64,000 nucleotides of DNA from a virus, in the IMG/VR virus record IMGVR_UViG_3300020146_000001. The stretch is one strand, 5' to 3'. This document shows positions 20,449 to 57,310 of this stretch, in pieces. The position numbers and the translations under genes were made by a program. The notes beneath the pieces were generated by a model. The model saw nothing but the letters and a program-made list of their open reading frames with translations. It was not told the origin of the DNA and made no database searches. Positions within the stretch are counted from its first letter, which is position 1. Every line of letters begins with the position of its first letter.

Positions 20449-20661
20449 TTACTCAGATTTCAAACCTAACTCTTTATCAATGCCTTCTAGTTCTGACTTC
20501 ATCCCGCGTCTCAGATGAAAGAGTTCGTCGCGGCGAAGTCGCTGCCATTCCTGGCGCATGAATTGGCGAATCGCTTCAGCCAATTCGGGAGGCAGTATAT
20601 CACAATCCCGTTCCGGGGGAGTATTTTTATCACGCTTAATCAATCTAATTGCTTGGCTCAC
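20449..20661 (-). CDS. Small hypothetical protein (70 aa)
   Basis: Overlaps the stop of 20658-21410 by 4 nt. Product is charged and helical. Confidence 0.45.
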   Translation of the reverse strand: MSQAIRLIKRDKNTPPERDCDILPPELAEAIRQFMRQEWQRLRRDELFHLRRGMKSELEGIDKELGLKSE

Positions 20662-21410
20662 CTTGATAAAGCCCCAGGTCGCTCTACAGAGCGCGCAACA
20701 AAAAATTGCCTTATCGCCTCAAGGGATTGGGATTTTAATACTTCCCGTGTGGGGTCTGCTACATGACCAAGTTCCCTAACGTCTGAAGGCTGCTTCTCTA
20801 CGAATGGGTCAATTCCTTGTCTTACATCTGCCCATGACCCGTACCTCTTAGAGCCGTCGCTCGGCCTAAATTCGTAGGTAATAGCAAACGCGGTTAGCCG
20901 CCCATATTTTTCGTACTCCTTCATTGACGGGAAATGCCCAAGAAGGCGAGCAACTCTACGCACATCGGCAAATTTCTGCTCCTTGCCGGAAATAGCCCTT
21001 TCAGTCTTGCGCTGTTTTTGCTTCTTACTCCTACCCTTACCAAAATAGAATTCAAGAACCCTTTTCCATCCAGACGGCTTTCCACAAACCCTTCGGCAAT
21101 AGGTTTCGTGACGAAACTTGCCGACCTTACTGTAATCCTTAATCGTAGGTAATCGCCCACATTCAACGGCTACCCTCTTTATATCCAACTCCAACGCCTT
21201 ATCATCAATTCTTGGAATTACGGTACGACGCTCGTATCTAAGCCCCGCTTTCTTAATCACCATCGGCCAACTGCCGCCGAATCTCTTGGTTACGGTTCGT
21301 GTATCGTGCGACCCGTAATTCCGATATTCAAGCGACGTGGGATAGTGGCCCAACTCCCTCGCCAAGCGTTTTACGTCATTAAGCAAGTCAACTGAGGAAA
21401 CTTTCTTCAT
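20658..21410 (-). CDS. Protein made of three homing-endonuclease-associated repeats (HEAR), with no nuclease domain seen
   Basis: Repeats are LGHYPTSLEYRNYG..TVTKRFGGSWPMVIKKAG, CGRLPTIKDYSKVG...GKPSGWKRVL and LGHFPSMKEYEKYG...KRYGSWADV. Confidence 0.7.
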   Translation of the reverse strand: MKKVSSVDLLNDVKRLARELGHYPTSLEYRNYGSHDTRTVTKRFGGSWPMVIKKAGLRYERRTVIPRIDDKALELDIKRVAVECGRLPTIKDYSKVGKFRHETYCRRVCGKPSGWKRVLEFYFGKGRSKKQKQRKTERAISGKEQKFADVRRVARLLGHFPSMKEYEKYGRLTAFAITYEFRPSDGSKRYGSWADVRQGIDPFVEKQPSDVRELGHVADPTREVLKSQSLEAIRQFFVARSVERPGALSR

Positions 21411-27976: not shown

Positions 27977-28214
27977 CCACCTTCCTTCCCCGATGAGTCT
28001 CCCCACACCAGCAAGGTAGTCCAGTCTCAGGGTGCGGGTCGTCTAACCTCTCCGACATGGCAATCACAATGAACTGCTGCGCCACGTCGTTAGAAATGAT
28101 TCCATGCTCGACTAAGACGTTGGCATTATCGCAGATTCTTGCGAGCCTGCTTGTGGCAAGATCATACCTGGCTTGTAGGTCATTGGCTTCCGTGACTTGA
28201 ACATTCGTGCTCAT
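27966..28214 (-). CDS. Hypothetical protein (82 aa)
   Basis: Start at MSTNVQV. ATGA overlap with the terL stop. Confidence 0.5.
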   Translation of the reverse strand: MSTNVQVTEANDLQARYDLATSRLARICDNANVLVEHGIISNDVAQQFIVIAMSERLDDPHPETGLPCWCGETHRGRKVDDE

Positions 28215-30292
28215 ATTTCCTCTCCCCACTCGTTAGTCTCAACAATGCGAGGTCTGATTTTCTTCTCTGCCTGTTTCCGGTTATAAATGAAAGTCATCTC
28301 AGCTTCAGGCGTCAGCCCCCCGCCCGGAATATTGGACTGCTCCTGTAAAGCCTCGAATCGCTTGCTCGGTGGCGTGGCCTCAACTACCTTCTCACCAAAC
28401 GTCAAAGGCAAAGGTGCAGGCGGGCCATTTACCATTGCCATCTGTAAGCCCTGCCCGAAGTCGTCATTCATCTTCATCGGGCCATGCTCGACTAACCCGC
28501 CTTCTGTAAGTTTGGCGGGCCGCATTCTCCAGTTGTTGAACTGATACCTGCACAAATCAGAATCGTGCAAAGCATCCGGTGTAGAGACTTGCGGATAAGG
28601 GTATTTCTCATCCTCAAGCAGTATGAACATGCCCGGACAACCTAGTTTCCACGTACCGTCTTCAAGTTGCTCATCCTCAAAGAACGGGTGTCGGGTCTTC
28701 TTATCTACCAGCATGAAGTGGTCTATCCATTCGAGCCCACCACTTTCGCCGGGATTCACTGGGGCGAATGGCAGGCCGAAGACTTTACGGTAAACAGTCA
28801 AAGCGTCGTTGTTCTGGTCGTGGGAGCCCACGAATGATGTGTAGCCGTTCTCCTGAAGCAAGGGAACCACGAGGGGAGGGATGACACCCGCTAAGACGTT
28901 CCTTCGGGCTTCGATCAATCTGGTTAGGTCGGATAGGTAGATTTCCAACCCAGCACGGGAGGTAGAAGAATCAATAAGCTGCGCCCAGGTCTGATTCGTG
29001 CCAGGGACAAAGGGCGTGATACTCTCTAATAACCTTTTACCAACATCATCGGCCTGCGTCTGCTCCTCAAATGACATCAAGTCGAACAGGAACAGCTTGC
29101 CGGGGAGCTTGGTGTTCTGATTGGAGACCGTCAGTTTCCCCGCGATGTTAGCGTGGTATGCTGATTTAGTACGTGACCAATCATGGAACACTCTCTTAGG
29201 CCAGTTCTTAGGGATGAATCTTTGACCGTAGACCCTCTGGAAATCAGAGCGACGAATCACCATCAGCTTGTCATTGTAGTTTCTTAATACTCTTCCTTCT
29301 TTGTTGCTCTCAAGGTCGTGCTGGTACTCTGCTAAGAAGGCGACCTTGCCGGAGTCGGCTAGGAACACACTCGCAGCCCTCAAGTCAATGCTCGGCCACG
29401 TAGGTCTGGCACTTTTAATCTTCCACTTCCTGCCCGCACTGGATGAATCCAACTCCAGTTCTAAATCGTCGAAGGCGGGGTACGGCCCTGACTCCTGACG
29501 CTCGGACAGGATGTCACTTCTGCGAGTGTAAACCTGAGTGACAAACCCATTCTCGTGAATAAGATTCTGTGGCACTAATTTAAGAGTGTCCGGCGTGCCG
29601 GCGGGTAGAATCTCGTGGGAGATAATCTTCATCTTCTTCTCTACGGCGGCCGGAGAATCTTTGCGGCTGTCAATGTCGTCAAAGACGAACATGGTAAAGC
29701 GCAGATCGAACAAACGCCCGCCGCGCACGCCTTCTTCTAGGCCAATCGGGATGATGCCCCAGTGTGAAGATGTTGCTAGAAAGTCCTGCCTCCACGCGGT
29801 CTGATAGCCGTGCTTATCCACACGAGGGTTAGAGAGTCCGGGGTAGTAGTAAGCCACCTGTGGAGAATCCAGGCGATTCCTGATTGACTGAATATGCCCC
29901 TTAGCCAATGCCTCAGTGTCGCAGACGTAACCGACGAATCCCGGCTCATCCGTCACACCTTCACCCAAAGCACCTTCAGCAATACAGGCCCACTCAACGT
30001 GCGAGCTTTTACCCATCCCGCGCCCCCAAATGAGGAGCATCGTCATTTCTTCGGGGGTCAGTACCTCGCCGCGAAGGAGTTTGAAGCGTACAGGCCAGTA
30101 CCAATCCCAAAATTCAAAATGGAAAGAGGCGAAGGGCTTACTAAACGTCCGCCTGCCGAGAGTCTGAAGCCAAGCCAGATAGCCCTTGCACTCCAACTCA
30201 GCGGCCTGCTCCGTTTTCGGGAACATCGCCGCTCGGCCAGGGAACAAAGCCCGCAAACGTGTGGCCTCTGCTATTGTCACACTAGTTGGCAT
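28211..30292 (-). CDS. terL: Terminase large subunit
   Basis: 693 aa. Walker A is WGRGMGKSS and Walker B-like is MFVFDDID. Follows the small-subunit gene with an 11-nt overlap. Confidence 0.9.
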   Translation of the reverse strand: MPTSVTIAEATRLRALFPGRAAMFPKTEQAAELECKGYLAWLQTLGRRTFSKPFASFHFEFWDWYWPVRFKLLRGEVLTPEEMTMLLIWGRGMGKSSHVEWACIAEGALGEGVTDEPGFVGYVCDTEALAKGHIQSIRNRLDSPQVAYYYPGLSNPRVDKHGYQTAWRQDFLATSSHWGIIPIGLEEGVRGGRLFDLRFTMFVFDDIDSRKDSPAAVEKKMKIISHEILPAGTPDTLKLVPQNLIHENGFVTQVYTRRSDILSERQESGPYPAFDDLELELDSSSAGRKWKIKSARPTWPSIDLRAASVFLADSGKVAFLAEYQHDLESNKEGRVLRNYNDKLMVIRRSDFQRVYGQRFIPKNWPKRVFHDWSRTKSAYHANIAGKLTVSNQNTKLPGKLFLFDLMSFEEQTQADDVGKRLLESITPFVPGTNQTWAQLIDSSTSRAGLEIYLSDLTRLIEARRNVLAGVIPPLVVPLLQENGYTSFVGSHDQNNDALTVYRKVFGLPFAPVNPGESGGLEWIDHFMLVDKKTRHPFFEDEQLEDGTWKLGCPGMFILLEDEKYPYPQVSTPDALHDSDLCRYQFNNWRMRPAKLTEGGLVEHGPMKMNDDFGQGLQMAMVNGPPAPLPLTFGEKVVEATPPSKRFEALQEQSNIPGGGLTPEAEMTFIYNRKQAEKKIRPRIVETNEWGEEI

Positions 30293-30926
30293 AACTACTG
30301 ACTATCGGGGCGAGTTCCGGCACGTCGCCCAACTCCGCAAGCAAGGTCTTTGCCGCCGTGGGCTGGTCTACTCCGTCACGCTCCATGATTCTGTGAATTG
30401 AACGCTCAACTTCTGCCCTGCGGGTTTCGTCAAAGGTGTTGGCTCTAGGCTCCTGCTTCATCCCGAACGTGTCCCTAAGCTGGTTCAAGGCTTCAAGGCG
30501 GGAATACATCTCGTATTCCCGAGACTTTATATTCCCTTTGGTGTCGTAATTGACCTTGACTTTCTTAATTAAATGGTCCGTTCCACTTTTCTTCGCATTT
30601 CGCAAGAACGGATCGTCGGGAACCACGTCGGCAAGTGAGGCCGTAGCTATCTCAGCGAGAGAGCCAACTATAATATCCGTATGAATTTGCGCCCTCCGCA
30701 TGGCCTCGGCCTTCCGGTTTTCTACGGCCTCCAAAATTCTTGCGTTTTCTTGCGTTTTATAAATCATGGATTTCGCCGTATGCGGCGAGTAGCCGGCATC
30801 TAAAGCGGCCCTATGCAAACTCTTGCCTTGTGCTACACCCTCAGCCGTTAGGAGTTGCCTCTTTGTTGGTCTCCTATTTGGCTTACCATCTCCCGCCCCC
30901 TTCTTTGTTGACTTCCTTTGAGCCAT
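30282..30926 (-). CDS. terS: Terminase small subunit (Terminase_2-like)
   Basis: 214 aa. SLHRAALDAGYSPHTAKSMIYKTQENARILEAVE matches the AGYS..tA HTH signature of small terminases. Directly upstream of terL. Confidence 0.75.
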   Translation of the reverse strand: MAQRKSTKKGAGDGKPNRRPTKRQLLTAEGVAQGKSLHRAALDAGYSPHTAKSMIYKTQENARILEAVENRKAEAMRRAQIHTDIIVGSLAEIATASLADVVPDDPFLRNAKKSGTDHLIKKVKVNYDTKGNIKSREYEMYSRLEALNQLRDTFGMKQEPRANTFDETRRAEVERSIHRIMERDGVDQPTAAKTLLAELGDVPELAPIVSSYAN

Positions 30927-34800: not shown

Positions 34801-37044
34801 CAGGCCAACCGCCACTTGACGCTGCTCACTTTCCAACCTCTGCCGCGAAGCCTCAAGGTCTGGAATTGACATCTCGTAGAGCGGTTTCTCTACTACGGGC
34901 GGGGCGGCACTCACCTCATTGAGCGCGGAACTAATCTCTTCGGTGGTGGCGTCGGCGACTCTCGCCTCTCTCGACGCCCTCAGAAAAGCCTCACGGTCAC
35001 CGGACTGTGCGGCCACTTTCAGCCCCTCAAGCGCGGCGGCTTTAGGCGTCAACGCACTCGGCGATTCTGCGGTTGGCCTCCGTTCTATCTCACCCCGACG
35101 ACTCATCCGATTTTTGTCTGGCACCTGTTGAATCTCGGGGTAGTCAAGCAGTAAACGACCTTCGGGGCGGGCTAATGGCTCGCTGGCGACCTCAGAGACG
35201 GGCATGTCGGCGGCGGATTTAGGCCGTGCGGGGCGTTCGAGCCCTAAAGGCGTCCTGACATCCCCGTCAAGCGGTCTGCGGCGTCCTACGGGCATTGCGG
35301 CACCCAAAGCGGCGTCCAGAACAAGGTCCGTGGGGTCGGTCTTTCCGGCAAGAGCAGATTGAGCAACATTGGTTGCTCCCGACGCCCCGCGGGTCAGGGC
35401 TTGGCGAGCCAAAGGACTCATCTTGTTGGTCAGACGAGAGACGGCAGAACCAGCGGCAACCATCGGGATTGTAGGCACGGCCTGACGTGTGGCCTCCATC
35501 GGCCCGCGGTGCAGGTTTTCGGCAAAGACAACAGCAGGGAACGCGGGGCCACTCCAACCCTTTGTTGCGATGGTTCCGGCAATCTCCGCACCACCTCTGG
35601 CTAGTTTGTTGGCTACGGTAGTCTCTTCGGGAATCGCACGCTGGGAGGCGTCCACTAAGGCTTGGGCCTCGCGATCTTCTGCGGCGAGGCGTTCCAGTTC
35701 GGGATGATTCTGACCCAACCCCAATCGAGCCCCAGCGGCCTTGGGAAGCATTACGACGTTGTGCAGAAGTTGACCCGCACCAGCCGCCGTCTCATCCACT
35801 CCGGTTCCTATCGCCGCTGCGATGCCCCTTTCCGCCCGGTCTTTCTTAAACGCCTCCGCTCTTTCCCTCTCAAACTTCTCGTCGGCTTCGTCAATCTGCC
35901 GCGTGGCTTCCCTGACGGCATCCACCGAGCCGGTTTGTAGGTAAGTATTCAGCGCGTGAATGAATCTCTGATTGGGCGCGACGTTGAAGACGTAAGTCCC
36001 GGTCTTATCGTCATATCCAACTTCGCCACGCTGGAAGGCTTCGGCTAAATTAAACTTGGCTTGTCCCAAAGGCTCGCCAGCTTCGGCCTTGAACCGTCTC
36101 CCCGCTTCGACATATGCAGGCCCGCCCATCGCTTCCAAGACAGCATCATCAATCTGCTCGACGGACGGATAACTCGACTTAGGAGAGCGCACGCGGACTG
36201 TGACACCCTTACCTTGCTCCCTGCCGTAGCCTTTGGGCGGCTCGGGCAAATCCGGCCTCGCGCGGTCGTGGAAATACTTTGCAATGCGCTGGCCCAGGTC
36301 CAAAGTTAGAGGTTCGGGTGTGGCGTCAGGATAGAGTTGCGGCTGAGTACCATCAGTTGTAGGCTGAATTGGTGCGTCAAAGTCTACGTCTTCGCGCACT
36401 GTGGAAGTCACGCGGGGCGTCCTCAGTACGGGCTGCGTGGCTGGCTGTAGGGCAGGTTGCGGAGCTCTGGCAACTCTTTCGACTGCGGCGTTGAGTCCGA
36501 GCGGCCCATCGGCAGGAGAAGCAGGCGAGTCCAGCCCGTCAGCCTTAGCCATCAACTCGGCAACCCTATCCTGACTAAATGGCTGCCCGGACAAGCGAAC
36601 AGGGTAGTAAAGGTCTTTGACGGTACTCGGGTCCACCACTTGGCCGTTTTCCCACCATTCGTAGTGAATGTGCGGGCCGTGCGCGTTCCCGGTTCTGCCG
36701 ACTGTAGCGATAGGCTGACCGGGATTTATGGTCTGCCCGACTTGAACAAGGTTCTGCGTATTGTGCATCATGCGGGAGCGGGCCTTGCGCCCGTCCGGCA
36801 TGTCAAACTCTAATTCAACCCAGTTGCCGCCACGCTTCGCACCCGTACCCACATTAGTTACTCTCGCGGGCACGTTGAACCCGTAGGGCGTCTTGTCTTC
36901 AATCTGAAGGTCGTAGCCCTTATGCCTACGCGCGCCGCCGTCACGGGGAGCGCCCCACTGGGAAATGACGCGGTTGATCGAACCGTCCCCGGACAGCCCG
37001 TCAGCCTTCTGCATCAACTCTCTTATGCGCTTCTCGTCCTGCAT
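31828..37044 (-). CDS. Giant polyvalent-type protein with an N-terminal M23 (LytM) peptidase domain. Candidate ejected/internal virion protein.
   Basis: 1738 aa. M23 motifs are RRHKGYDL (HxxxD) and GNAHGPHIHYEW (HxH). The remainder is long, helical and charged with no motif I recognise. Confidence 0.8.
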   Translation of the reverse strand: MQDEKRIRELMQKADGLSGDGSINRVISQWGAPRDGGARRHKGYDLQIEDKTPYGFNVPARVTNVGTGAKRGGNWVELEFDMPDGRKARSRMMHNTQNLVQVGQTINPGQPIATVGRTGNAHGPHIHYEWWENGQVVDPSTVKDLYYPVRLSGQPFSQDRVAELMAKADGLDSPASPADGPLGLNAAVERVARAPQPALQPATQPVLRTPRVTSTVREDVDFDAPIQPTTDGTQPQLYPDATPEPLTLDLGQRIAKYFHDRARPDLPEPPKGYGREQGKGVTVRVRSPKSSYPSVEQIDDAVLEAMGGPAYVEAGRRFKAEAGEPLGQAKFNLAEAFQRGEVGYDDKTGTYVFNVAPNQRFIHALNTYLQTGSVDAVREATRQIDEADEKFERERAEAFKKDRAERGIAAAIGTGVDETAAGAGQLLHNVVMLPKAAGARLGLGQNHPELERLAAEDREAQALVDASQRAIPEETTVANKLARGGAEIAGTIATKGWSGPAFPAVVFAENLHRGPMEATRQAVPTIPMVAAGSAVSRLTNKMSPLARQALTRGASGATNVAQSALAGKTDPTDLVLDAALGAAMPVGRRRPLDGDVRTPLGLERPARPKSAADMPVSEVASEPLARPEGRLLLDYPEIQQVPDKNRMSRRGEIERRPTAESPSALTPKAAALEGLKVAAQSGDREAFLRASREARVADATTEEISSALNEVSAAPPVVEKPLYEMSIPDLEASRQRLESEQRQVAVGLLGREKGNRYLELERKILSPDAPDSVVRRARSEMEQMTRGLTEQQLNRLEQESPVSVDDYKTFRDDLETIAAHSDSEESLARALAKPLTDIGAERDPAKMNRQQQRAYAQMRYAAEIARGKGFDTAKITGMAAERAKGRFSNREDAEFMLRHLFKDTSGLKDAPRGLSAAPATPHYERQNRRARNTATGRKGQFKSGFKEESPAVSGVRSEEAPKGETNEVPVSAVPARPADVGLPRTGTVERAASESKGAARSLPQSLERVGLQKGEDLTYEVVTDKAAYGRAQESIRQQGVDRVAADLLTKLHGGEEVSKDDAVAGFELMRRFEESGETKRAAELANVLSQKLTQAGQVTQAASVLARLSPEGVKIAASRKAGRELTVQESNSVTEAAAKVREAEGKISTLEKQIAELQMRATTRAPRPKLETLQERLQKAESEARARLEARKQGGVKGSQAGASIIPLDIADYAIIGASKLAQKGVSAASFTADMVKEFGEEIRPKMRAIYREAYKLYDQNRKDLLQEQRERSVRRENVGPLRPEDMRRLVNQRLDAQTDARKARQQLAKKFDELSATPGRTFGRKVVDVLGLARAAETALDLSWGLRQGKMALARHPLIWAKGFGKQIQALKADKFERIVSEIEGDADFKYAKRFKLGLTAEGLRGETLGAREESFQTSLADKIPGIAMSQRAQTAMGDVVKFGWFKDYLNKARKAGLDPEKAEDRAVFQQGVDLINDFTGRGKLPRQLEGAAPVLNNTIFSPRFWAARVRSLTITPARMVLPERMGGLSGPARKEAFKTLFAFSSLVAAQLALAKMNGAEVATSPEDKKFGKACWGDTCFDFSAGFQSHIRLALNLEKAIRGESNREPMEIFGTYVRGKESPIASIVHDTFLSRRKEGRGTDVTGEPVYMAGKPGTSGFERLRTSYPFKKLTPMVWNDAIEAYKQSGLGAGLGIGIASFLGEGATSYEQRENRGTSRGTARPSASRPAKPQRSTKE

Positions 37045-39014
37045 TACTTCTTAAACTTCAGGCGAACCCCGGCAGCAGCCTCTTCAGGACTGGCCCCGAC
37101 TTGAATCATGCGGTTGTAGTATTCCTGCTCTTGGGGTGAATACCTTTGAACTGCGCCCGACGATTGTGCGGCACGGGGCGGGGTGTATTGAGTCTGCTGG
37201 GGCGCGGGGCGGGCAGGGCTAGGCTGCTTAGGAGTCCTTATCTGCCCCTGCATCTCGCCTATCTCATCCCTCAACCTGATTGCCCGCTTACGGTGCTCCT
37301 CGCGGTAGTAAGGGTCAATGTTCGGGTTCTTAGCGTTGGCGTCTTCGCCTTCCGCCTCGCGTTGTTTTTCACGAATGCGGCGCTTCAAGTCCTCGTTGAA
37401 ATCGGAATCTTCTTTGAATTGCTGTTCCTCCTTAGCAACCCTTTCGGCCTCACGCCGCTCCCACTCACTCGCGTACTTCGTCTGCTCGTTTATCTGTTCG
37501 ACTTTCGCCCTTTCTCCCGTAGCCGTCGCCATCGCAGCCGTGTTCGGTGAGACCTTGAATCTCTGACCGGCAATCTCAAACTCGACCGGAGTTCTCAGTG
37601 TGTCCGTAATTTCTCTTCCCTGATTGTCTGCCGCAGGCTCGTACTGGCGGGACTCAGGATTAAAAATCAGGAGCTTACCGTCTGCCCACTGGGTATTCGG
37701 TGCTCCTGTCCTCTTCGCGCTGACCACAACCTCCGTCCGGTCAGCCTCGCCCTCTGCGCCGGGGGTGATTTTCACGATTTGGCCCTGCGCGTTAGTTCTG
37801 TAAATAGGTTTAGGCTGCGGTGGGCTCAGAATCTTTCGCGTCTGGGCCTTGCGCCAGTCGTCAAGAATCTGGTCCGACTGAATGCCCGTCATGGCCCTTC
37901 TCAGTCCGACCTGATTTACTAACTCCTGCTGATTCTCAGCCTGTACCCTCTTCAACCTTCCCTCTGCCAAAATGTCCGGGTCAGCAGCGGCGTGGGCTCC
38001 ACCCGCGAGGGAAGGAATTAAACCCCTGCCCTCAAGCATCCCCTGCCCTAACGCCTTGCCGAAAGCCCCGAACCTTCCCCAGAAGCCCCGCTTCGCCTGA
38101 GTACGCGGATTCCCAAACTTGTCCTGCCCGAAGTCCGGCCTTGAACTGTCCGCATAGGCAGAGTTTTCTGCCGCTCTTATTAGGGGGTCTACGGGCTGGG
38201 TCAATCTCAATCTTCCGGTAGACGCCACTTCTGAAGGCGAAAGCATGTGCGAGCCTTCCACCAGAGTCGGGGGTCGCTCTAGGGCAGGCAGAGCATCAAC
38301 CGTTGACAAGCTACCTACCCGAGCAATGGGAGAACGCATCAGCGGGGGGATGTCATTCACAATCAGACCCCCAGTTTCAACCGGGATAGGCATCCCAACG
38401 GCGCGGCGTCTGGTCAACGGTTCCGGCGCGTCATTCTCGCCCCCGGCATTATGTAGGAGGGGCACGGCGCGGAGAACGGCATCGTTTACCGACTCCCCGC
38501 TCGGAAGAGTCTCGTCTAACTGCCGCCTTCTCAGTAAGAGAGGAATTAAGCTATCCATTGCTCTGCGTGATAGTGCCATTACCTTCTTCTCCTTCTTCTT
38601 CGCGGCCTTCGCCTCAGACGGCGAGATGTACGGCGACAAAGCCCTCTTCAGCCTGTCCGAACGGGCGGGGTGGCGTAACTTTCTCAGCGCCTTTGCCTCA
38701 ATTTGCCGCACCCGTTCCCTACTCACCCCCAGGCGCTTACTGATGTCCTCTAACGTGTGCCCCTCCGAGCCGTCAAAACCAAACCGCAGCTTGATAATCA
38801 ACTGCTCTCGCGGTGCTAGGGTTGAAACCGCCGATTCCAATAGCCCCGACATCTCATGCTCCGCGACCACATCAAAGGGCGAGGGTGGAACCTGAAAAAT
38901 ACCGGAAGGCGACATCTGCTCAGACAGCGACAAGTCTTCAGACGACAGCAAGTCGTTAAGCGTCACGCCGCCCAACATCCTTGATTCGTCTAAATACATC
39001 ACCGCTTGCTGCAT
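37044..39014 (-). CDS. Sigma-70 region 3.2/4 module fused to a ~530-aa uncharacterised C-terminal region
   Basis: The N-terminus LAPREQLIIKLRFGFDGSEGHTLEDISKRLGVSRERVRQIEAKALRKLRHPARSDRLKRAL follows the RpoD C-terminal consensus. TAATG overlap with the 1738-aa gene. Confidence 0.8.
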   Translation of the reverse strand: MQQAVMYLDESRMLGGVTLNDLLSSEDLSLSEQMSPSGIFQVPPSPFDVVAEHEMSGLLESAVSTLAPREQLIIKLRFGFDGSEGHTLEDISKRLGVSRERVRQIEAKALRKLRHPARSDRLKRALSPYISPSEAKAAKKKEKKVMALSRRAMDSLIPLLLRRRQLDETLPSGESVNDAVLRAVPLLHNAGGENDAPEPLTRRRAVGMPIPVETGGLIVNDIPPLMRSPIARVGSLSTVDALPALERPPTLVEGSHMLSPSEVASTGRLRLTQPVDPLIRAAENSAYADSSRPDFGQDKFGNPRTQAKRGFWGRFGAFGKALGQGMLEGRGLIPSLAGGAHAAADPDILAEGRLKRVQAENQQELVNQVGLRRAMTGIQSDQILDDWRKAQTRKILSPPQPKPIYRTNAQGQIVKITPGAEGEADRTEVVVSAKRTGAPNTQWADGKLLIFNPESRQYEPAADNQGREITDTLRTPVEFEIAGQRFKVSPNTAAMATATGERAKVEQINEQTKYASEWERREAERVAKEEQQFKEDSDFNEDLKRRIREKQREAEGEDANAKNPNIDPYYREEHRKRAIRLRDEIGEMQGQIRTPKQPSPARPAPQQTQYTPPRAAQSSGAVQRYSPQEQEYYNRMIQVGASPEEAAAGVRLKFKK

Positions 39015-39094: not shown

Positions 39095-39463
39095 TCAATG
39101 TGCTAAACCGTTCCCGCCGTGGCGGAATCTTTCAAGCTCAAGTTCGATCATTTCGAATCTATCTTTCCAGAGGTCGCGGTCTTCAACTAACTGCTTCTTT
39201 TCCTGCTCCCACGCTTGCTCCGCTTCTCTTAAATCTTTGCGAATGTCCCTGATAATGTCGTTATAAGTTTTCGTGGCCTCGGCTTCTATCTTCAGAGCCT
39301 CGGCGCGTTCTCTGACTGTCTTCGCGTCCGTGTAGTGAATCTCCGCCGGTATCTTCTTCCGCTCCCTCCACTCCCTGAACCACCCTCCCGCAAAAACAAT
39401 TGCAAGCAGGTAGATGATAAGGTCCAGCCACGAGCGCGGTGAGGTTGGAAAAGGTACTTGCAT
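39095..39463 (-). CDS. N-terminally anchored coiled-coil membrane protein (i-spanin-like architecture)
   Basis: 122 aa. One TM helix (LDLIIYLLAIVFAGGWF) followed by a charged coiled coil. Confidence 0.5.
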   Translation of the reverse strand: MQVPFPTSPRSWLDLIIYLLAIVFAGGWFREWRERKKIPAEIHYTDAKTVRERAEALKIEAEATKTYNDIIRDIRKDLREAEQAWEQEKKQLVEDRDLWKDRFEMIELELERFRHGGNGLAH

Positions 39464-39464
39464 C

Positions 39465-39884
39465 TCATATCTTCTGCCTTGAATTTAACCGCTTGGCATC
39501 TCGACTCAGTTCGTCAAGCAAATCTGTATTCACACTGGCATTCTTGAACCTGCGCCTCAGATACCTGCTCACCGCCGGGGAGTTCGGGTGATACTGACGC
39601 CCCAACTGACACAGGGCGGCCGGGTGACTTCGATTCCACGGACTCTTTTGGACAAAGCCTCTGGGGTACGTCTCCGCGTCGGCGTCAGCCTCTTCCTCGC
39701 GCTCGTACACGCCCTGAATGTGGGGAGCATTCCGCCACTGCCAGCAGAAGAAGACGAAGCGTTCAATGGGCAGGAGGATGCACGAGACGAACACCCTCCC
39801 GGCCAAAGGCAAGCCCTCGAAAGAGGTGTTCTGCCCGACGATGTGGACCTCACACAGAGGCTCTTGTTTGGGTTGCGCGCTCAC
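39465..39884 (-). CDS. Hypothetical protein (139 aa)
   Basis: Co-oriented ORF that overlaps the upstream gene by 4 nt. Confidence 0.5.
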   Translation of the reverse strand: MSAQPKQEPLCEVHIVGQNTSFEGLPLAGRVFVSCILLPIERFVFFCWQWRNAPHIQGVYEREEEADADAETYPRGFVQKSPWNRSHPAALCQLGRQYHPNSPAVSRYLRRRFKNASVNTDLLDELSRDAKRLNSRQKI

Positions 39885-40042
39885 GGCCTGTCAGGGGGCT
39901 TCCCACTACCGGGACCGGGTATCTCGCCATCCGCGGGCATCGGCTCAGGTTCCGACTCTGGCTTAGGTGGCGGTTGCGGCTTAGGCTTCTCGGGCTCGTC
40001 TTCCGCCCTCGCGTCAATCGGTATCTCTTTCTTATCTGCCAT
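39881..40042 (-). CDS. Small Pro/Glu/Lys-rich protein (53 aa)
   Basis: Start at MADKKEI, with AAAGGAAAACAGA upstream. Low complexity. Confidence 0.35.
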   Translation of the reverse strand: MADKKEIPIDARAEDEPEKPKPQPPPKPESEPEPMPADGEIPGPGSGKPPDRP

Positions 40043-40260
40043 TCTGTTTTCCTTTCGCTGAATGATTACTAGTGGTTGCGGCGGCTTGTGGGCCTCCATT
40101 TACCTCTGCCCTTCTCGTGCATATACTTTGCACGGGCTGGGGCAAAGATGTTTCCTTTGCTCTGGTCAAGTCCGGGCTGCGTCATCTTCGCGGGTAGCGC
40201 AGTCCGGGCGTCCCGGTTTAGTTACTCACCACACGCTCAAAAGCCTTATTTTTCGGTTCA

Positions 40261-40584
40261 TCATTTCGGATGAACCTGTGGTTTCGGAATCTTTGCTACC
40301 GCCACGGCCTCAAAATCATGCGGACGTAAACGGCGGTCCTCGCCAATCATGTGGGCGGCATACTGCGCCCGCGGGCTGTGTCCAACCGTGAACCCACGGC
40401 AACAGGCGTTGCAGATGAACGACGGAACGCCTAAGCCGACACCGCGCTTATTCGCCGGGTTGAAGGAATCATCCCGCGAGATATTCTCAACGCCACACCA
40501 CGGGCAGAAGCGCACGGCTTTAATCGTTCCCGAATGTCTGCGTCCTCTAGTCGGCATCTTCCCCTTCCGCTTAGCTTTAACCAC
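40261..40584 (-). CDS. Basic Zn-ribbon protein (107 aa)
   Basis: GTG start. Contains CPWCG ... CNACC. The N-terminus is Lys/Arg-rich. Confidence 0.5.
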   Translation of the reverse strand: MVKAKRKGKMPTRGRRHSGTIKAVRFCPWCGVENISRDDSFNPANKRGVGLGVPSFICNACCRGFTVGHSPRAQYAAHMIGEDRRLRPHDFEAVAVAKIPKPQVHPK

Positions 40585-40641
40585 TTGAGCAGCATTGCTC
40601 GTGTGGCAACGTTCACCTTGTTCCCGGCCCGTGGGCCGAAC

Positions 40642-40971
40642 TCAAATCCCCACACTCCTCAAATCTTTCCTCAGCAAATTCAGCCCCCAGATGATGAGTC
40701 CGAGCATGAGGAAGGTCGCGCCGACCTGTATCCACTGCTCGACACTCAGGCTCTCGGGCATCACCCCTTCCTGCTGCGCCTTCATAATCGCCGCCGGCAG
40801 TCGGATGTACCCTATGACCTGCCTCGCCCCGCCAACGATGAAGGCCAGAGCCAGAAGCGTCCAGGCGCTCGACTTGAGGATGTGCCTCAGTGCCACGGCC
40901 TGCATGACGATCACCAGATAGCAGGAGGTCAGTGCGAAGGCCAGAAGTAGAACTTGCTCACTTATGCCCAT
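40642..40971 (-). CDS. Multi-TM membrane protein (holin-class candidate)
   Basis: 109 aa with about 3-4 hydrophobic helices. Overlaps the upstream gene by 10 nt. Confidence 0.5.
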   Translation of the reverse strand: MGISEQVLLLAFALTSCYLVIVMQAVALRHILKSSAWTLLALAFIVGGARQVIGYIRLPAAIMKAQQEGVMPESLSVEQWIQVGATFLMLGLIIWGLNLLRKDLRSVGI

Positions 40972-41360
40972 TTGAATTTCCTCATCGTCTGCATGGCTGC
41001 CAGTAGCTGAATCGCCGCGTTACGCTCCGACTTCGGGCAGGTGTAATCGTCCTTCAGCCTCTTGAGATAATTCATCAACTGCTGCCGCTCCTCTTCACTC
41101 AACGCGCCCTCCTGGTGCTTACGGAGCAGGACGCGAATGTTGTCCGGCGTCGGGTTAGGCGAATCAAGCACCATCGCGGCCCCCTTGCCCGTGTTTTCCA
41201 GGTAGTATTTGAAGGCCGTTTCCAGCTTCACAATATCTTTCCCGAATTGAATCACCTGCTTGACCAGCCAGGTCAGCAAACCGATAACCGCCATTGATGC
41301 GGCGATGATGTAGGGCGTCAGCGTCGGGTCTAAAAGTATTAAGCCTGTCGGGTCTTGCAT
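40962..41360 (-). CDS. Single-TM membrane protein (132 aa)
   Basis: TM helix is PYIIAASMAVIGLLTWLV. The C-terminus is helical. Confidence 0.5.
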   Translation of the reverse strand: MQDPTGLILLDPTLTPYIIAASMAVIGLLTWLVKQVIQFGKDIVKLETAFKYYLENTGKGAAMVLDSPNPTPDNIRVLLRKHQEGALSEEERQQLMNYLKRLKDDYTCPKSERNAAIQLLAAMQTMRKFKWA

Positions 41361-41384
41361 TCATAACCTCTTGCTCACTCGGGC

Positions 41385-41666
41385 TTACTTCCGTCGCCAC
41401 CGCTTCTCGTTCGCCTCGTGCAGCTTCCTCAAGATTTCCGGCTTGAGGTGGTTGCGAATCGCAGAGGCCACGTCCACGCAAGCGAACTCTTCATTTTCGC
41501 CTTCCACTTTGGGCGGCGACAGGTAGCGCGCGACGGTCTCAGTGATGAACTCAACAAGCTCGTCATGGAATGGGGTTTCCGGTGGCTCTGGAAACTCAAA
41601 GTTCGGGTGAAGCCGAAGCGACTTATGTACGGCATGTGCCGTTATGTCTCTCGTCAAATGTCCCAT
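41385..41666 (-). CDS. Hypothetical protein (93 aa)
   Basis: GTGAGGAAAGA RBS upstream of the ATG. Confidence 0.5.
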   Translation of the reverse strand: MGHLTRDITAHAVHKSLRLHPNFEFPEPPETPFHDELVEFITETVARYLSPPKVEGENEEFACVDVASAIRNHLKPEILRKLHEANEKRWRRK

Positions 41667-41803
41667 TCTTTCCTCACTTCTTTTCCTCGCCGCCTACTTC
41701 CCCTTCCAATCCAACCAAAACCCAATCAGTACAAGCATTGCCAGGATTACCGCCAACAGGACGCAGCCCCAAAGGTTCTTTCCGGGCATGGGGCGAAAAC
41801 GTG

Positions 41804-42016
41804 TCACGGCTTACTAAGGTCACGAACCTCACGCCTCAACGGCGTATGCGGGTGGCAGTATTCGGAGTTCATAGCCACACAGGCCCGCATCGGACAACCA
41901 ACCATCTTGCACTTCGGCCATCGGTAGTAATGAACAAGAATCCCGTTCTCAGTCTTGTAGGCCGCAACCGCAAGGTCTGTCTTCGGGTCAAGAATTAGCG
42001 ATACAAGTTCCATCAC
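41804..42016 (-). CDS. Small Cys/His-rich protein (70 aa)
   Basis: Contains CKMVGCPMRACVAMNSEYCHPH. Confidence 0.45.
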   Translation of the reverse strand: MMELVSLILDPKTDLAVAAYKTENGILVHYYRWPKCKMVGCPMRACVAMNSEYCHPHTPLRREVRDLSKP

Positions 42017-42191
42017 TTATTCACCCTCTTTCAACGGCCCCTTGCCGGGGGAGAGCCGGAAACCGACGTGCGCGTGTACTCACCACGTCGACTACAAGAT
42101 ATTGCTTGCGAGTTCAATCCTTTGCCTGTCGACCGCAACATATAGTGCCCTTTGGTGCGCGCGGGGCTTGTTTCGGGCTCCCACGTCGACA

Positions 42192-42509
42192 TCAGCCATC
42201 CCTCTTAGTCTGGCTACTACCGGCCCCACCCGTAGGCGGGGGCATGGCCGAGACAACGGCAGTAGCGGCGGCACGGGTGAACCCGAAGATGCCGGCGGCG
42301 GACAACGAAACAGCAACCCACCCCGCGAAGTAGTCGAAAGCTACGGCACGTTCAAAATTGCCCTTTGACCACCCCCACACGCCAACGCCTAAAAGCGAGA
42401 CGAGCAGGACGGCAATCGGCCCCCACCTGTCGGGCAGACCGCCCCACTTGATTATCTGAACCAACCCGACCACCGAAGCCGAAACCGCAATAATGGCCTG
42501 ACCGTCCAT
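42192..42509 (-). CDS. Holin-like membrane protein
   Basis: 105 aa with three hydrophobic helices and a polar C-terminal tail. Resembles small Gram-positive-phage-type (r1t/LL-H-like) holins (tentative). Confidence 0.5.
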   Translation of the reverse strand: MDGQAIIAVSASVVGLVQIIKWGGLPDRWGPIAVLLVSLLGVGVWGWSKGNFERAVAFDYFAGWVAVSLSAAGIFGFTRAAATAVVSAMPPPTGGAGSSQTKRDG

Positions 42510-42521
42510 CTCTTCACCTCA

Positions 42522-43037
42522 CTACGGGCACAAACTGTCGTCCCTGTTCACGGGAAGCCTGTCTCCCCCGATTTCCACGGGCACGTCTTCAACTTCCACC
42601 TTCAGCGGCTCGACTAGTTCACCTACGCCATCGAACAAACCGCTTAATTGCTCTTTGAACTCGCCTTCAAGAATGCGTAAGTGACATCTCACGTCCCGGT
42701 ATAAGCCCTTGAACTTCCCCGCCGCCTTATCGAAATCCGCTTTACTGCGGACAAGCCTGACTTCGCCGCTTAGCCCCCTGAAACTGCCTATGAAGCCCCG
42801 ATAATGCGTCTTCACCTCATCGGGCAGATTCACTTTGTCGAACTTCTCCTCCAGTTTGTTGAGTTGGGCGTCGAACAGATCGGCCAATTCGTTAAAAGCC
42901 AGCGGGGTAGCCTTAGACACGAGTACGGCAACCAGCTTCTTGATGTCCTGCTTCTGCTCGCAGCCGGGGGCGGTGAATCCCGCCGTGCCGAAGACGATGA
43001 CGAGGATTAGGATTGTGAGTCTGATGGATTTTCGCAT
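42522..43037 (-). CDS. Secreted or lipid-anchored helical protein
   Basis: 171 aa. Signal peptide is MRKSIRLTILILVIVFGTAGFTAPGC, with a possible non-canonical lipobox. Confidence 0.55.
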   Translation of the reverse strand: MRKSIRLTILILVIVFGTAGFTAPGCEQKQDIKKLVAVLVSKATPLAFNELADLFDAQLNKLEEKFDKVNLPDEVKTHYRGFIGSFRGLSGEVRLVRSKADFDKAAGKFKGLYRDVRCHLRILEGEFKEQLSGLFDGVGELVEPLKVEVEDVPVEIGGDRLPVNRDDSLCP

Positions 43038-45630: not shown

Positions 45631-45825
45631 TCAAGCCACCATTTCAATCACCGTCGGCACGTAGAGAGATTGATACTCCCGCTCAAATGTTTCGCGCATG
45701 AGCGCCCCTTTGCGGAGTGAACGTAAGTCCTCGACCTCACCCGCCAGCCTGTCGCGCTCCGATTCGAGCTGTGCGAGTCGGGCGAGTTTGGAGTCGATCT
45801 GCCGCTTGTATTCCTCTGAACCCAT
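45631..45825 (-). CDS. Small coiled-coil protein (64 aa)
   Basis: First minus-strand gene left of the divergent promoter region. GGGGGAGAAATAGAAG lies upstream. Confidence 0.45.
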   Translation of the reverse strand: MGSEEYKRQIDSKLARLAQLESERDRLAGEVEDLRSLRKGALMRETFEREYQSLYVPTVIEMVA

Positions 45826-45922
45826 CTTCTATTTCTCCCCCGATTTCAGACCAGCGGCGCGCCAAGACGAACCACAGGTGAACGATTCCCCGAAAATAAT
45901 TCTTGAATTTAAGCGATTTCTC

Positions 45923-45952
45923 TTGACAACCCATCGTCGTTGGGTTTATTAT
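45923..45952 (+). promoter_or_regulatory. Sigma70-type promoter for the plus-strand island
   Basis: TTGACA at 45923-45928 and TATTAT at 45947-45952 (18-nt spacer; TTATTA gives 17). It lies 60 nt upstream of ATG 46013, which has a GGAG RBS. Confidence 0.5.
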
Positions 45953-46012
45953 CCCTGTGTCGTTGGGGAAGAGTTCTTGAGACCCTGACGAGAAGGTGTA
46001 GGAGATACGAAA

Positions 46013-46330
46013 ATGGCTTGGACAATCAAAATAACGAGGCAGCAAATCACGGACAACGCGATGGTCGTTCGCTCGATTCTGGGCAAGGACGTTGAGACCA
46101 TCAGCTACTCTGTGACCGAAACTGAGCCCGCACCTAGAACACTTGACGCGGAAACCGGCAAGTATCGTATGGCCCGTGTAGTAAGCGGCAAGAGCACGCA
46201 AGAGTGGATTGAGCACGGCACGGAGTTGTGCCACAGCCGCGAAGAATACAACGCGATTCACGGCACAAAGGATTTGGAATTGACGCTTGACTACCTGGGC
46301 AGTCTGACGGCAATTAAGGAGGTGGAATAA
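46013..46330 (+). CDS. Hypothetical protein (105 aa), island gene 1
   Basis: RBS is GTAGGAGATACGAAA. On the strand opposite to all neighbours. Confidence 0.55.
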   Translation: MAWTIKITRQQITDNAMVVRSILGKDVETISYSVTETEPAPRTLDAETGKYRMARVVSGKSTQEWIEHGTELCHSREEYNAIHGTKDLELTLDYLGSLTAIKEVE

Positions 46331-46660
46331 ATGACCACAATTAATCTGGGAAACGGTGGTCAGTACGTGAACGGCCACACCTACTACGACTTCAAGCCTT
46401 ACAGGGGCAACGACGTGGGTGGCTCTTACAGGAGAGTTGATATTCCCGGAGTCGGTAGGCGGGTGTGGGCGCGGCTGGAAGATAGGGGTGAAGACGAAAC
46501 AGGGCGCACCGTCGGCAAAGGCGGAGACAGCGTGGTGCTTCCTCGCTACTCGGTCTGCGTGATTGGCTGGGGCAGCGACACGATTAACAGCGAACTTCAC
46601 CTTGACGGCGACGAAATGGACGCCGCGCTGTTTGCCAGGCTCAAATCGGAATTGTCGTAA
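46331..46660 (+). CDS. Hypothetical protein (109 aa), island gene 2
   Basis: The ATG directly abuts the TAA of gene 1. GGAGGTGGAA lies upstream. Confidence 0.55.
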   Translation: MTTINLGNGGQYVNGHTYYDFKPYRGNDVGGSYRRVDIPGVGRRVWARLEDRGEDETGRTVGKGGDSVVLPRYSVCVIGWGSDTINSELHLDGDEMDAALFARLKSELS

Positions 46661-46736
46661 GAGTTTGAAAGGGCGTGCCGCGAATCCAACTCGTAGCGCG
46701 CCCTTTCTCTGTTCGTAAAAACAGGAGATACGAACT

Positions 46737-47003
46737 GTGTCAAATCCTACCACAGAAAAAGAACTGGTCGGTAAATTCGTCCTCTGGGCAGCCTCCCTCG
46801 AAGACGGTCGCGGCACGCTCTGTTCGCCTGAGCACGTCGAAGCGATCAAGGCGGCCGCCGAGCGCCTCGTCAGACAGATGCAGGCAACGGCACGAGCCGG
46901 CCGTGCAACGTCCGAGCGCAAGGCCGAGGCCGCACGAGAGAACGCCAAACGGGGCGGCGCACCGAAGGGGAACCGCAACGCAACCCGGAAAGGAGAAAAG
47001 TAA
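46737..47003 (+). CDS. Hypothetical protein with a basic GGAPKGNRNATRKG tail (88 aa), island gene 3
   Basis: ACAGGAGATACGAAC RBS (nearly the same leader as gene 1). Confidence 0.5.
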   Translation: MSNPTTEKELVGKFVLWAASLEDGRGTLCSPEHVEAIKAAAERLVRQMQATARAGRATSERKAEAARENAKRGGAPKGNRNATRKGEK

Positions 47004-47174
47004 GTGACCGCCGAAGCCAAAGAAGCAATCGTCAAAGAACTGGAACGCCTCGCCCTGGAGCTAATCAATACTTCCCGCAACCTCTCCTCGCCCAAGAAGG
47101 CGGAAGGGTACGGCGAGTGCGTGCAGCGCATTAACAAGCGCAAGGAAGAAATTCTGTGGTCTAAGACGGATTGA
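47004..47174 (+). CDS. Small helical protein (56 aa), island gene 4
   Basis: Below the track cutoff. GTG 47004 lies 1 nt after the upstream TAA, with AAGGAG 8 nt upstream. TGA at 47172-47174. Confidence 0.4.
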   Translation: MTAEAKEAIVKELERLALELINTSRNLSSPKKAEGYGECVQRINKRKEEILWSKTD

Positions 47175-47202
47175 CTCAACTCGTCACCTCGAATAAAGGT
47201 TC

Positions 47203-47219
47203 GCCCCCGCCGGGGCTTT
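47203..47219 (+). terminator. Intrinsic terminator closing the plus-strand island
   Basis: GCCCC (47203-47207), loop cgcc, GGGGC (47212-47216), then TTT. Confidence 0.5.
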
Positions 47220-47230
47220 CGCTGCCCGTT

Positions 47231-47254
47231 ACTCATTCACCGCAGAAGGTAAAA
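47231..47254. repeat. 24-nt element ACTCATTCACCGCAGAAGGTAAAA, copy 1
   Basis: 22 of 24 nt are identical to 54397-54420. Both copies lie just 3' of a minus-strand gene stop. Confidence 0.6.
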
Positions 47255-56880: not shown

Positions 56881-57061
56881 AATCTGAGGTTTCTTTATGC
56901 TTCGGCTGGTTAACTTTTCCTGTTACCTTCCCTCTTGCTGAATAAGCGGGGCTGACCAACGGCCCCATACGTCACCTGAAACCAAAGGGCTAGACGTTCT
57001 ATAGGGCGGGGCTGGCTTGCTGTGGTGGCTGACAGCCCCCGCCCGACAAAGTTCTTTGACA

Positions 57062-57205
57062 TCAATCGTCAAGCTCTGTGAATGGGTCACACTCATGCTC
57101 GGGCATGCAGTCATCACAGAACGTGCCGTTGCAGTCGTCGCAAAGTTCTGTTGGCCGCTCAACGTCGCAGTCATCGCAGATGTAAGTGAGAACTAAAGTA
57201 GCCAT
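57062..57205 (-). CDS. Small acidic Cys-rich protein (47 aa)
   Basis: Start at MATLVLTY, with AAGGGA upstream. Contains CDDCD...CDDCNGTFCDDC. Confidence 0.4.
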   Translation of the reverse strand: MATLVLTYICDDCDVERPTELCDDCNGTFCDDCMPEHECDPFTELDD

Positions 57206-57230
57206 TTGTTTTTCCCTTAAACTTCCTGTC

Positions 57231-57266: not shown

Positions 57267-57310
57267 TCAAGTGCCATACGGCACACAGGAGGAAACTTGG
57301 TGTTTGACAA

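Follow-up and report, generated by a model that had tools for sequence, protein, structure and literature searches.

Background

Bacteriophages are known to attack the interface formed by sigma region 4, the beta-flap of RNA polymerase and the -35 promoter element and to substitute sigma factors in their entirety, and virions containing polymerases or modifiers of polymerase are also known. In phage T4, gp33, a polypeptide of its own, stands in for sigma region 4 on the beta-flap, although it is neither homologous to that region nor able to bind DNA. Sigmas that are split or made of two subunits, T4 gp55 plus gp33 among them, have been described (PMC3152322), and T4 AsiA, Thermus gp39, Xp10 P7 and phage G1 gp67 all target the sigma-4/beta-flap/-35 interface (PMC6755090, PMC3950348, PMC3985653). 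RinA and LtrA are phage-encoded, sigma-4-like DNA-binding activators whose genes stand before the packaging genes (Ferrer 2011, PMC3152322; Quiles-Puchalt 2013, PMC3753634). Here we analyse a locus of IMG/VR record IMGVR_UViG_3300020146_000001, a phage from an acidobacterial metagenome, in which an RpoD-type sigma region 4 (hereafter sigma-4) stands at the N-terminus of a 656-amino-acid (aa) protein. The protein, P0001, is encoded by the minus-strand open reading frame (ORF) 39014..37044 (stop codon 37044-37046); the window means the whole 64,000-nt stretch of DNA that was analysed.

The survey of polyvalent phage proteins contains no occurrence of the word 'sigma' (Iyer et al. 2017, PMC5512222), and our literature search found no virion-borne or stand-alone phage sigma-4. 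This agrees with an earlier, sequence-only reading of the locus, whose author was aware of no phage carrying sigma-4 itself on a virion-module protein. Assemblies from NCBI, JGI, ENA and Logan all contain the exact 656-aa protein. It is also found on a 302-kb contig of a metagenome-assembled genome (MAG) labelled Pyrinomonadaceae.

An RpoD-type region 4 without the rest of sigma

The assignment of the N-terminal part of the protein to RpoD-type region 4, already proposed from the letters of the sequence, was borne out by profile and structure searches. Pfam Sigma70_r4 (PF04545) covers aa 63-115 with 67.9 bits, where the gathering score is 24.1 (E=5.5e-19), the match of PHROG 351 'RNA polymerase sigma factor' spans aa 18-146 (E=1.5e-21), and SigA/RpoD region-4 structures in the PDB match aa 42-125 with E values down to 1.4e-18, their alignments extending to the last residues of the sigma chains. 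Residue conservation was judged against an alignment of the segment with 119 RpoD hits, in which the phage module agrees with RpoD at all invariant and near-invariant positions of regions 4.1 and 4.2. In what we take to be the E. coli RpoD numbering, these are L551, P553, R554, E555, R562, F563, G564, T572, L573 and E574, followed by R584, E585, R586, R588, Q589 through P601, R603, S604 and L607, and the changes found at conserved positions are conservative (V576I, G577S, F580L, T583S and F610A). The residues of the -35 recognition helix are present together with the C-terminal HPxRS signature, and the alignment thus confirms the terminal region-4 signature (the HPxRS...L tail) that had been noticed before. 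In the AlphaFold model the sigma-4 segment shows the expected helices, with predicted local distance difference test (pLDDT) values of 73-86, and aa 1-45 have values of 25-30. Because every residue that RpoD uses for contacts with the -35 element and the beta-flap is kept, the module would be expected to bind -35-like DNA and/or host core polymerase by itself.

The absence of regions 1.2 to 3.1 was also confirmed. Pfam detected neither regions 1.2 and 3 (PF00140, PF04539) nor region 2 (PF04542) in the 656-aa protein; region 2 gave no match either to the upstream neighbours or to the scanned early-region ORFs (39.9-57.2 kb), and no region 3 domain was found in the upstream neighbours or in selected early-region ORFs of the same interval. 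A six-frame search of the whole window with a profile built on the final 200 aa of RpoD, limited to regions 3-4, revealed no second sigma-like ORF. The full-length RpoD equivalog of NCBIfam scored 93 bits, below its cut-off of 555. As for the proposed resemblance of the preceding acidic stretch to region 3.2, it proved weak: HMMER alignments of sigma factors do extend N-terminally as far as aa 12-18, but of about 20 near-invariant RpoD residues the stretch keeps only some 3, and the leader of aa 1-45 is possibly a decayed trace of region 3.2.

A probable in-frame merger of two phage genes

The sequence-only reading recognised no motif in the about 530 aa behind the module and missed that the ORF joins two formerly separate genes. 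The remaining 511 aa belong to a conserved small phage family, with 41 representatives in a profile search of 1.84 billion proteins, and we are strongly confident that the ORF, with a genuine sigma-4 at its head, arose when two adjacent phage genes merged in frame, the start of the second being preserved inside the fusion.

The evidence for the merger lies at the junction. RpoD C-termini map to aa 127-132 of the protein (mode 129), and the codon of Y129, TAC, is one substitution away from a stop codon, there being no stop codon at the junction now. The linker that follows has a Lys/Glu run which is the translation of 'AAGAAGAAGGAGAAGAAGGTA', the former ribosome-binding region, and directly behind the linker, at M146, begins the N-terminal motif of the partner family, 'M..RL.RRR.LDE.LP.G..' (MALSRRAMDSLIPLLLRRRQLDETLPSGESVNDAV in the window protein). 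The perfect AAGGAG sequence ahead of M146 represents the strongest Shine-Dalgarno type of the window: at a spacing of 8-9 nt it precedes only 4 of the 55 gene starts in the window, and the other 13 in-frame internal ATGs of the ORF all lack it. M1 has a weaker GAGG site with a spacing of 8 nt. It is the preservation of the M146 start and its Shine-Dalgarno sequence, together with the position of Y129 at the RpoD end point, that argues for a merger of neighbouring genes.

Since GAGG is weak at M1 and AAGGAG is strong at M146, two products would be expected, a minor sigma-4-tagged form of 656 aa from M1 and a major form of 511 aa from M146. Nested in-frame genes are a known device by which phages add sub-stoichiometric N-terminal cargo to assemblies that consist of the shorter form, the lambda C/Nu3 pair being an example.

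A likely source of the module in other phages

The closest relative of the window family protein is P0132, which is encoded in locus L003, aligns with it over 536 aa at 33% identity, the longest alignment of any relative, and has the motif 'LPSGESxNDAVLR' in common with it. Upstream of P0132, L003 has a separate sigma-4 gene (L003:3868-4665), whose stop overlaps the start of the family gene by 4 nt. Its 265-aa product has Sigma70_r4 as the sole strong domain (E=1e-17), an N-terminal Cro/YdaS-like helix-turn-helix (HTH) and no region 2. The simplest history is therefore one in which two adjacent, coupled genes were arranged as in L003, and the upstream gene of the window lineage lost its HTH domain and its stop codon. 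The separate gene at exactly this position also speaks against the sequence-only view that phages of this architecture do not keep transcription factors here, as do RinA and Ltr, which are encoded at the early/late junction upstream of terS (PMC3152322, PMC3753634).

Proteins combining an XRE/YdaS-like HTH with sigma-4 form a phage family of at least 20 clusters (200-340 aa, without region 2), which is unnamed and was defined in this analysis (P0163-P0181, P0184, P0187, P0188 and P0194). Many of these HTH-sigma-4 proteins have an unaltered RpoD-type recognition helix. The first 150 aa of the window protein score 113.6 bits (aa 39-138) against a hidden Markov model (HMM) of the family and 106.6 bits (aa 44-126) against an RpoD HMM that was built from RpoDs chosen as the module's own best hits. 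Positions 1-113 of the family HMM are unmatched in the window protein, and no HTH_3 or YdaS match was found in it with Pfam. In a neighbour-joining (NJ) tree the module falls inside the HTH-sigma-4 family, with a sister group made up of family members only in 204 of 300 bootstraps. Among 5.8 billion proteins its best identity is only 49-58%, cellular RpoDs reaching at most 58%, and both the GC content and the GC content at third codon positions (GC3) of the segment equal the phage average.

Because RpoD identity does not exceed 58%, composition is phage-like, and both the family HMM and the NJ placement point to phage relatives, the module looks like an old phage resident of primary-sigma descent and not like a fresh capture of the 3' end of a host rpoD, as the sequence-only reading had it.

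Acidobacterial-type RpoDs share the loop between regions 4.1 and 4.2 of the module (LDDGSEHTL-like). A 4-residue insertion and a 'DGxE' loop, at one stage taken for shared derived characters of the window and L003 proteins, were dropped, as the RpoDs P0193 and P0195 have the same features; likewise, an apparent identity of 69% to P0193 was an artefact of trimming, BLASTP giving 52%.

Genes of the HTH-sigma-4 family were also located in other phages. In L008/L009 (P0174; L008:8001-8615) and L013/L014 (P0177; L013:7829-8455) they directly follow a portal-like gene of about 875 aa, which they overlap or from which they stand 14 nt away, and they lie upstream of homologues of the 498- and 424-aa proteins of the window. 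The C-terminus of MzaA, a sigma-70-family component of the MZA anti-phage system, is the best NCBIfam match of P0174 and the second-best of the window module (38565-39014, minus strand; 92.6 bits against a cut-off of 800); this match indicates only that RpoD-grade sigma-4 domains occur also in a defence protein.

The partner family and its giant neighbours

The profile of the partner family matches over the basic N-terminal motif, the beta core and the helical hairpin (relatives down to 1e-111; the E=3.7e-247 of the window protein is a self-match, since it is part of the query profile), and a search with the C-terminal 530 aa alone returned two homologues, both without sigma-4. When 43 members were scanned with Pfam and PHROGs, the window protein was the only one with a recognisable domain, namely sigma-4. 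Foldseek searches of the C-terminal part gave best E values of 0.31 in the PDB, consisting of helical or coiled-coil noise only, and 0.029 in BFVD.

The family protein starts with a basic motif and a disordered Pro/Gly-rich stretch of about 170 residues, within which a RxRxTQPxxPL...PDFGQDK...AKRG block is conserved. The part behind it (aa 340-656) was modelled by AlphaFold (AF2) from a multiple sequence alignment with a mean pLDDT of 82; the order of its elements is given in Table 1. The combination of long disorder with a helical hairpin would plausibly suit a protein that passes through a tail channel. Two relatives, P0124 and P0128 (L007:10001-11899), have extra modules inserted in the disordered N-terminal half, e.g. 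NPYDRPVLKNADGSISTTSS...LTPEQAMAEFRKTGGNFGSY. It seems that this half can accommodate accessory cargo, and sigma-4 would be a case in point.

Scans for loci of the C-terminal family in IMG/VR, JGI metagenome contigs and GTDB genomes yielded no relative, so that the genomic context had to be taken from exact-protein look-ups, by which nine family loci were read. In eight of the nine (the window, L002-L007 and L015/16) a giant gene lies directly 3' of the family gene, in most cases with an overlap of 1 or 4 nt. The encoded giants carry M23, SLT, ART-PolyVal, TopoIB or PBECR5 domains, or no recognised domain (Table 1). In the window, the coupling noted previously was confirmed: the family stop and the giant start form TAATG, with a 1-nt overlap at the shared base 37044, the partner is the 1738-aa M23 protein, and terS and terL lie downstream. 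The window giant is a mosaic, as its aa 1328-1712 match the C-terminus of the L004 ART-PolyVal/PBECR5 protein (32%, 9e-46) and its aa 196-588 match the L006 giant, and BLASTP gave nothing significant between it and the L002 giant. A conserved C-terminal module may target the giants to the particle. A few kb upstream of the family gene, L002 also carries an IS605 OrfB/Cas12f-like TnpB gene (L002:6400-7515, minus strand).

An N-terminal peptidoglycan hydrolase on a giant phage protein is a feature of proteins delivered at infection, as in T7 gp16. ART-PolyVal-type domains are likewise a feature of proteins delivered at infection (PMC5512222). Because both kinds of domain occur among the giants, a role of the family-plus-giant pair in the virion or in ejection is a reasonable reading by analogy. 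The sequence-only reading had already called the protein a component of the virion module and suggested its ejection; the first part is in line with a context that places the partner beside virion- or ejection-type giants, while ejection would be one of several possible readings.

The phages of L007, L008 and L015 are related to that of the window, with terL identities of 29-54%, matches to the 424-aa protein, and counterparts of the 885-aa protein at about 30% identity (E 1e-102 to 1e-117). In L007 and L015 the family-plus-giant pair stands directly after the gene of about 875 aa, inside the module that runs from terL to the capsid-like gene, which is the slot held by HTH-sigma-4 genes in L008 and L013. 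In the clade of the window, then, the sigma-4 gene and the family-plus-giant pair are interchangeable in position, adjacent (L003) or fused (window), and this argues for a common module.

Genomic setting of the fusion gene

The giant is followed by genes for an HHH protein, terS and terL. Upstream of the fusion gene there is a block of nine small ORFs, six of which have 1-3 predicted transmembrane (TM) segments, and before this block a 19-bp terminator-like hairpin is found at 43186-43145. No sigma-70-like promoter was found on the coding strand at 30-46 kb. Because of this and of the TM-rich cassette upstream, the fusion gene appears to lie within a late block composed of membrane/lysis-like genes, the fusion, the giant and the terminase genes, and late expression of the fusion would follow. 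No direct-repeat operator was seen near the gene.

Candidate targets of the module were sought in the window as well. TTGACA is not enriched window-wide (23 observed, 28.6 expected), and five of the 23 sites lie close together at 57056-57654, where the leftward early genes and the rightward genes diverge. This region is likely to be the early control region, and its sites are possible targets of sigma-4.

Table 1. Features of the fusion locus, and giant genes of related loci (positions refer to the window; aa positions of the fusion refer to the 656-aa protein)
Feature	Position	Strand	Basis or remark
Whole ORF, sigma-4 module fused to conserved phage family protein	37044..39014	-	Pfam, protein look-ups
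N-terminal leader, aa 1-45, low confidence, no HTH domain	38880..39014	-	pLDDT, RpoD alignment, family HMM
RpoD-type sigma region 4.1-4.2, aa 46-128	38631..38879	-	Pfam core aa 63-115 at 38670-38828
Junction linker, aa 129-145 (YISPSEAKAAKKKEKKV), 17 codons	38580..38630	-	DNA, RpoD alignment
AAGGAG Shine-Dalgarno sequence, 9 nt before M146 ATG	38589..38594	-	
M146 ATG, inferred ancestral start	38577..38579	-	Probable internal start of 511-aa isoform
Basic N-terminal motif, then Pro/Gly-rich disordered region, aa 146-345	37980..38579	-	
Long helix and small beta domain, aa 346-490	37545..37979	-	Most conserved family core
Helical hairpin of about 90 residues (coiled-coil-like), Pro-rich spacer, two-helix C-terminal domain, aa 491-656	37047..37544	-	
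Giant, 1738 aa	31828..37044	-	Translationally coupled; M23 at aa 40-139 (36628-36927)
terS	30282-30926	-	Pfam/PHROG
terL	28211-30292	-	Pfam/PHROG
Small-ORF block, membrane/lysis-like	39095..43037	-	TM prediction
Portal-like gene, 885 aa	21568..24225	-	Label positional
250-aa protein with three HNH-associated repeats	20658-21410	-	PF18780, E=1.8e-27; slot after 885-aa gene
L002 giant, 2650 aa			ART-PolyVal and TopoIB
L004 giants, 1108 aa, then 1530 aa			SLT; ART-PolyVal/PBECR5
L005 giant, 1152 aa			SLT
L006 giant, >790 aa			
L007 giant, 2315 aa			
L015/16 giant, 2918 aa			SLT

Other features of the window were recorded in passing. The best sigma-70-like promoter is at 45923-45952 (TTGACA-18-TATTAT, 11 of 12 matches), and behind it lies a plus-strand cassette with ORFs at 46013-46330, 46331-46660, 46737-47003 and 47004-47174; a 499-aa minus-strand ORF over this cassette (45737-47236) looks spurious, given its low-complexity translation and a local flip of the skew. 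The window also encodes an MT-A70 methyltransferase (54423-55007, minus strand), an S24 (LexA/UmuD-like) peptidase (58897-59328, plus strand), a Dam methylase (62777-63346, plus strand) and an Ada-type zinc-binding protein (1079-1519, minus strand). At the ends of a 56.6-kb Logan contig (window ~668 and ~57267) a search for att-like direct repeats found only a 9-mer, and the window showed no tRNA, no Rfam family and no GenBank phage similar in DNA.

Possible functions of the fusion protein

As the best explanation of the locus as a whole we favour gene merger followed by delivery of sigma-4 with the virion, with confidence that stands about midway between belief and disbelief. The sigma-4-tagged isoform would co-assemble with the untagged protein and the giant and enter the cell with the DNA, where the few copies of sigma-4 at the entering genome would occupy -35 promoters or bring in host polymerase for a first round of transcription. 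The idea of delivery comes from the late-gene setting and from the partner family occupying, after the portal-like gene, a slot typical of head-internal or ejected proteins. The few copies in a virion cannot titrate thousands of polymerases, and a delivered module must therefore act locally; on these numbers alone, a decoy for host factors present in a few virion copies, which had been suggested for this protein, is implausible. Local action on the entering genome is the least certain step, and we put it forward tentatively, as less likely than not. In T7, host RNA polymerase working at early promoters pulls the genome into the cell, and a similar pulling of this genome would give a rationale for placing sigma-4 at the exit of the channel.

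Several observations weigh against this explanation. Packaging of the family protein and of the giant is a supposition from gene context. The label 'portal-like' is a positional guess, because no profile or structure search of the 885-, 498- and 424-aa head-module proteins identified a portal, scaffold or capsid. The slot behind this gene also holds HNH-type mobile genes, such as that of the 250-aa protein in the window, and may be a mere insertion hot spot. Only two of the nine loci have sigma-4 together with the family, so that sigma-4 is not core to the function of the family; the fusion itself is a singleton, present in one of 43 family members and without sequence variants. The C-terminal family had no usable match in Pfam and PHROGs (43 members), in a PDB profile search, in NCBIfam or in BFVD, and no homologue from a cultured phage was found. 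In L010 (8001-8699) and L011 (8001-8930) HTH-sigma-4 genes lie among replication or early genes, as ordinary regulators would. Finally, the NJ placement of the module is only moderately supported, as the sister group consisted of RpoDs only in 86 of 300 bootstraps.

The rival that survives best, although we consider it rather unlikely, is a sigma-4 competitor that is made late and acts inside the cell without being packaged, occupying -35 boxes or the beta-flap, or titrating host factors that bind sigma-4. Host promoters and early phage promoters that depend on the -35 element would be shut off, and the helical hairpin would merely oligomerise or stabilise the protein. The full set of DNA- and flap-contacting positions of region 4 and the embedding of the gene in a late-looking block suit such a competitor, the stoichiometry would fit a highly expressed protein and not a few virion copies, and the relatives in early or replication contexts would be regulators made de novo. 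It is moreover well established that phages have factors which act on sigma-4 or the flap to disable -35 recognition (AsiA, gp39 and P7; PMC6755090, PMC3950348, PMC3985653). The ribosome-binding site of M1, weaker than that of M146, argues against production of the tagged form in bulk, however, and the competitor leaves unexplained why sigma-4 is repeatedly placed beside the family-plus-giant pair, or in its slot.

A neutral and perhaps very recent read-through is less probable still. According to this alternative, a decaying regulator lost its HTH and then its stop codon, the 511-aa product of M146 is the functional protein, and the tag has no role. The junction speaks for such an event, with the ancestral ribosome-binding site and start intact and of the strongest type in the window, and with a codon one substitution from stop exactly at the RpoD end point; that the fusion occurs once among 43 members, that the HTH typical of the HTH-sigma-4 family is missing, and that aa 1-45 look unstructured point in the same direction. 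On the other hand, sigma-4 itself shows no decay, with all invariant 4.1/4.2 residues kept while the adjacent 3.2-like stretch drifted, M1 has a GAGG site of its own at 8 nt, and the identical ORF occurs in several independent assemblies.

There is little to recommend an activator of the Ltr/RinA kind, which would bind upstream of the late operon and turn on the packaging and lysis genes, the fusion being incidental. Both the window module and the separate L003 gene do lie just upstream of the late block, but no RinA, ArpU, DUF1492 or LtrC match was obtained with Pfam or PHROG, the window gene appears to be inside the late block and not before it, and the HTH-sigma-4 genes of L008 and L013 are downstream of terL and the portal-like gene, which is the wrong place for an activator of terS. 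Besides, a recognition helix unchanged from RpoD would read ordinary -35 boxes and not a phage-specific operator, and no direct-repeat operator was seen near the gene. As to a recently captured 3' end of host rpoD serving as a decoy for sigma-4-binding host factors, it is hardly credible: primary sigma factors are indeed the best matches, the LDDGSEHTL-like loop is common to acidobacterial-type RpoDs and the MAG contig is labelled Pyrinomonadaceae, but RpoD identity of at most 58% is low for a domain highly conserved within phyla, composition is phage-like, the sigma-4 family of phages would serve at least as well as a source (113.6 against 106.6 bits), and the separate gene found in L003 at this very place points to a longer history in phages.

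Returning to gene merger with virion delivery, its broadest form would be that a clade of acidobacterial phages keeps a sigma-2-less, RpoD-grade sigma-4 among its head-internal or ejected proteins, as a delivered '-35 reader' or 'beta-flap plug'; we regard this generalisation as doubtful. If it were true, host polymerase would be nucleated on the entering genome, leading to transcription-assisted entry or to a jump-start of early genes, and the protein would be the first virion-borne sigma domain. A sigma-4 that a phage carries without the remaining parts of sigma would be another answer to the problem that other phages solve by attacking or replacing sigma. The free-standing HTH-sigma-4 proteins, for their part, could be one-piece 'sigma appropriators', in which the HTH reads a new DNA site and sigma-4 contacts the flap. 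In addition, the fusion links the HTH-sigma-4 family, in the manner of a Rosetta stone, to an unstudied protein that accompanies giant virion-type proteins with peptidoglycan-hydrolase or polyvalent domains, in a phage group that at present has almost no functional annotation.

Comparison with known systems

With RpoD and SigA the module shares a homologous region 4, including helices 4.1 and 4.2, the -35 recognition helix and the HPxRS...L tail. Unlike in these sigma factors, the domain is N-terminal, regions 1.2, 2 and 3 are absent, and an unrelated phage protein of about 530 aa follows. The HTH-sigma-4 proteins are closer, having an RpoD-type sigma-4 without region 2, occurring in the same phage clade and sharing the linker and tail regions, but they are free-standing proteins of 200-340 aa with an N-terminal HTH, whereas the window module has no HTH and is part of a 656-aa fusion.

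RinA and LtrA, which resemble the window protein in concept, are small basic proteins of Gram-positive siphoviruses, with limited similarity to sigma-4 and with phage-specific repeat operators; the window gene stands upstream of terS within what looks like a late block, and its product is 656 aa long and has no sequence match to them. A two-subunit sigma of the T4 gp55 plus gp33 type would require a gp55-like or sigma-2-like partner, and the window scans found none. AsiA, gp39, P7 and gp67 are binders at the sigma-4/beta-flap/-35 interface, whereas the window protein is sigma-4 itself.

Among phage proteins delivered at infection, the likeness to the N4 virion RNA polymerase, T4 Alt and the polyvalent proteins (PMC5512222) would consist in a late, transcription-related domain encoded near the head module or the giants, the cargo here being a sigma domain. 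Polyvalent proteins combine at least two disparate effector domains; in the window protein one domain is recognisable, on an uncharacterised scaffold, and the polyvalent-type domains (ART-PolyVal, TopoIB and PBECR5) are found in the syntenic giants. A protein of medium size ahead of a giant that starts with a peptidoglycan hydrolase recalls T7 gp15/gp16, but no similarity of sequence or fold was detected (PDB, Foldseek) and the genomic position differs. A virion-delivered sigma domain is no more than possible, and the fusion is a variant of known themes and not a new category.

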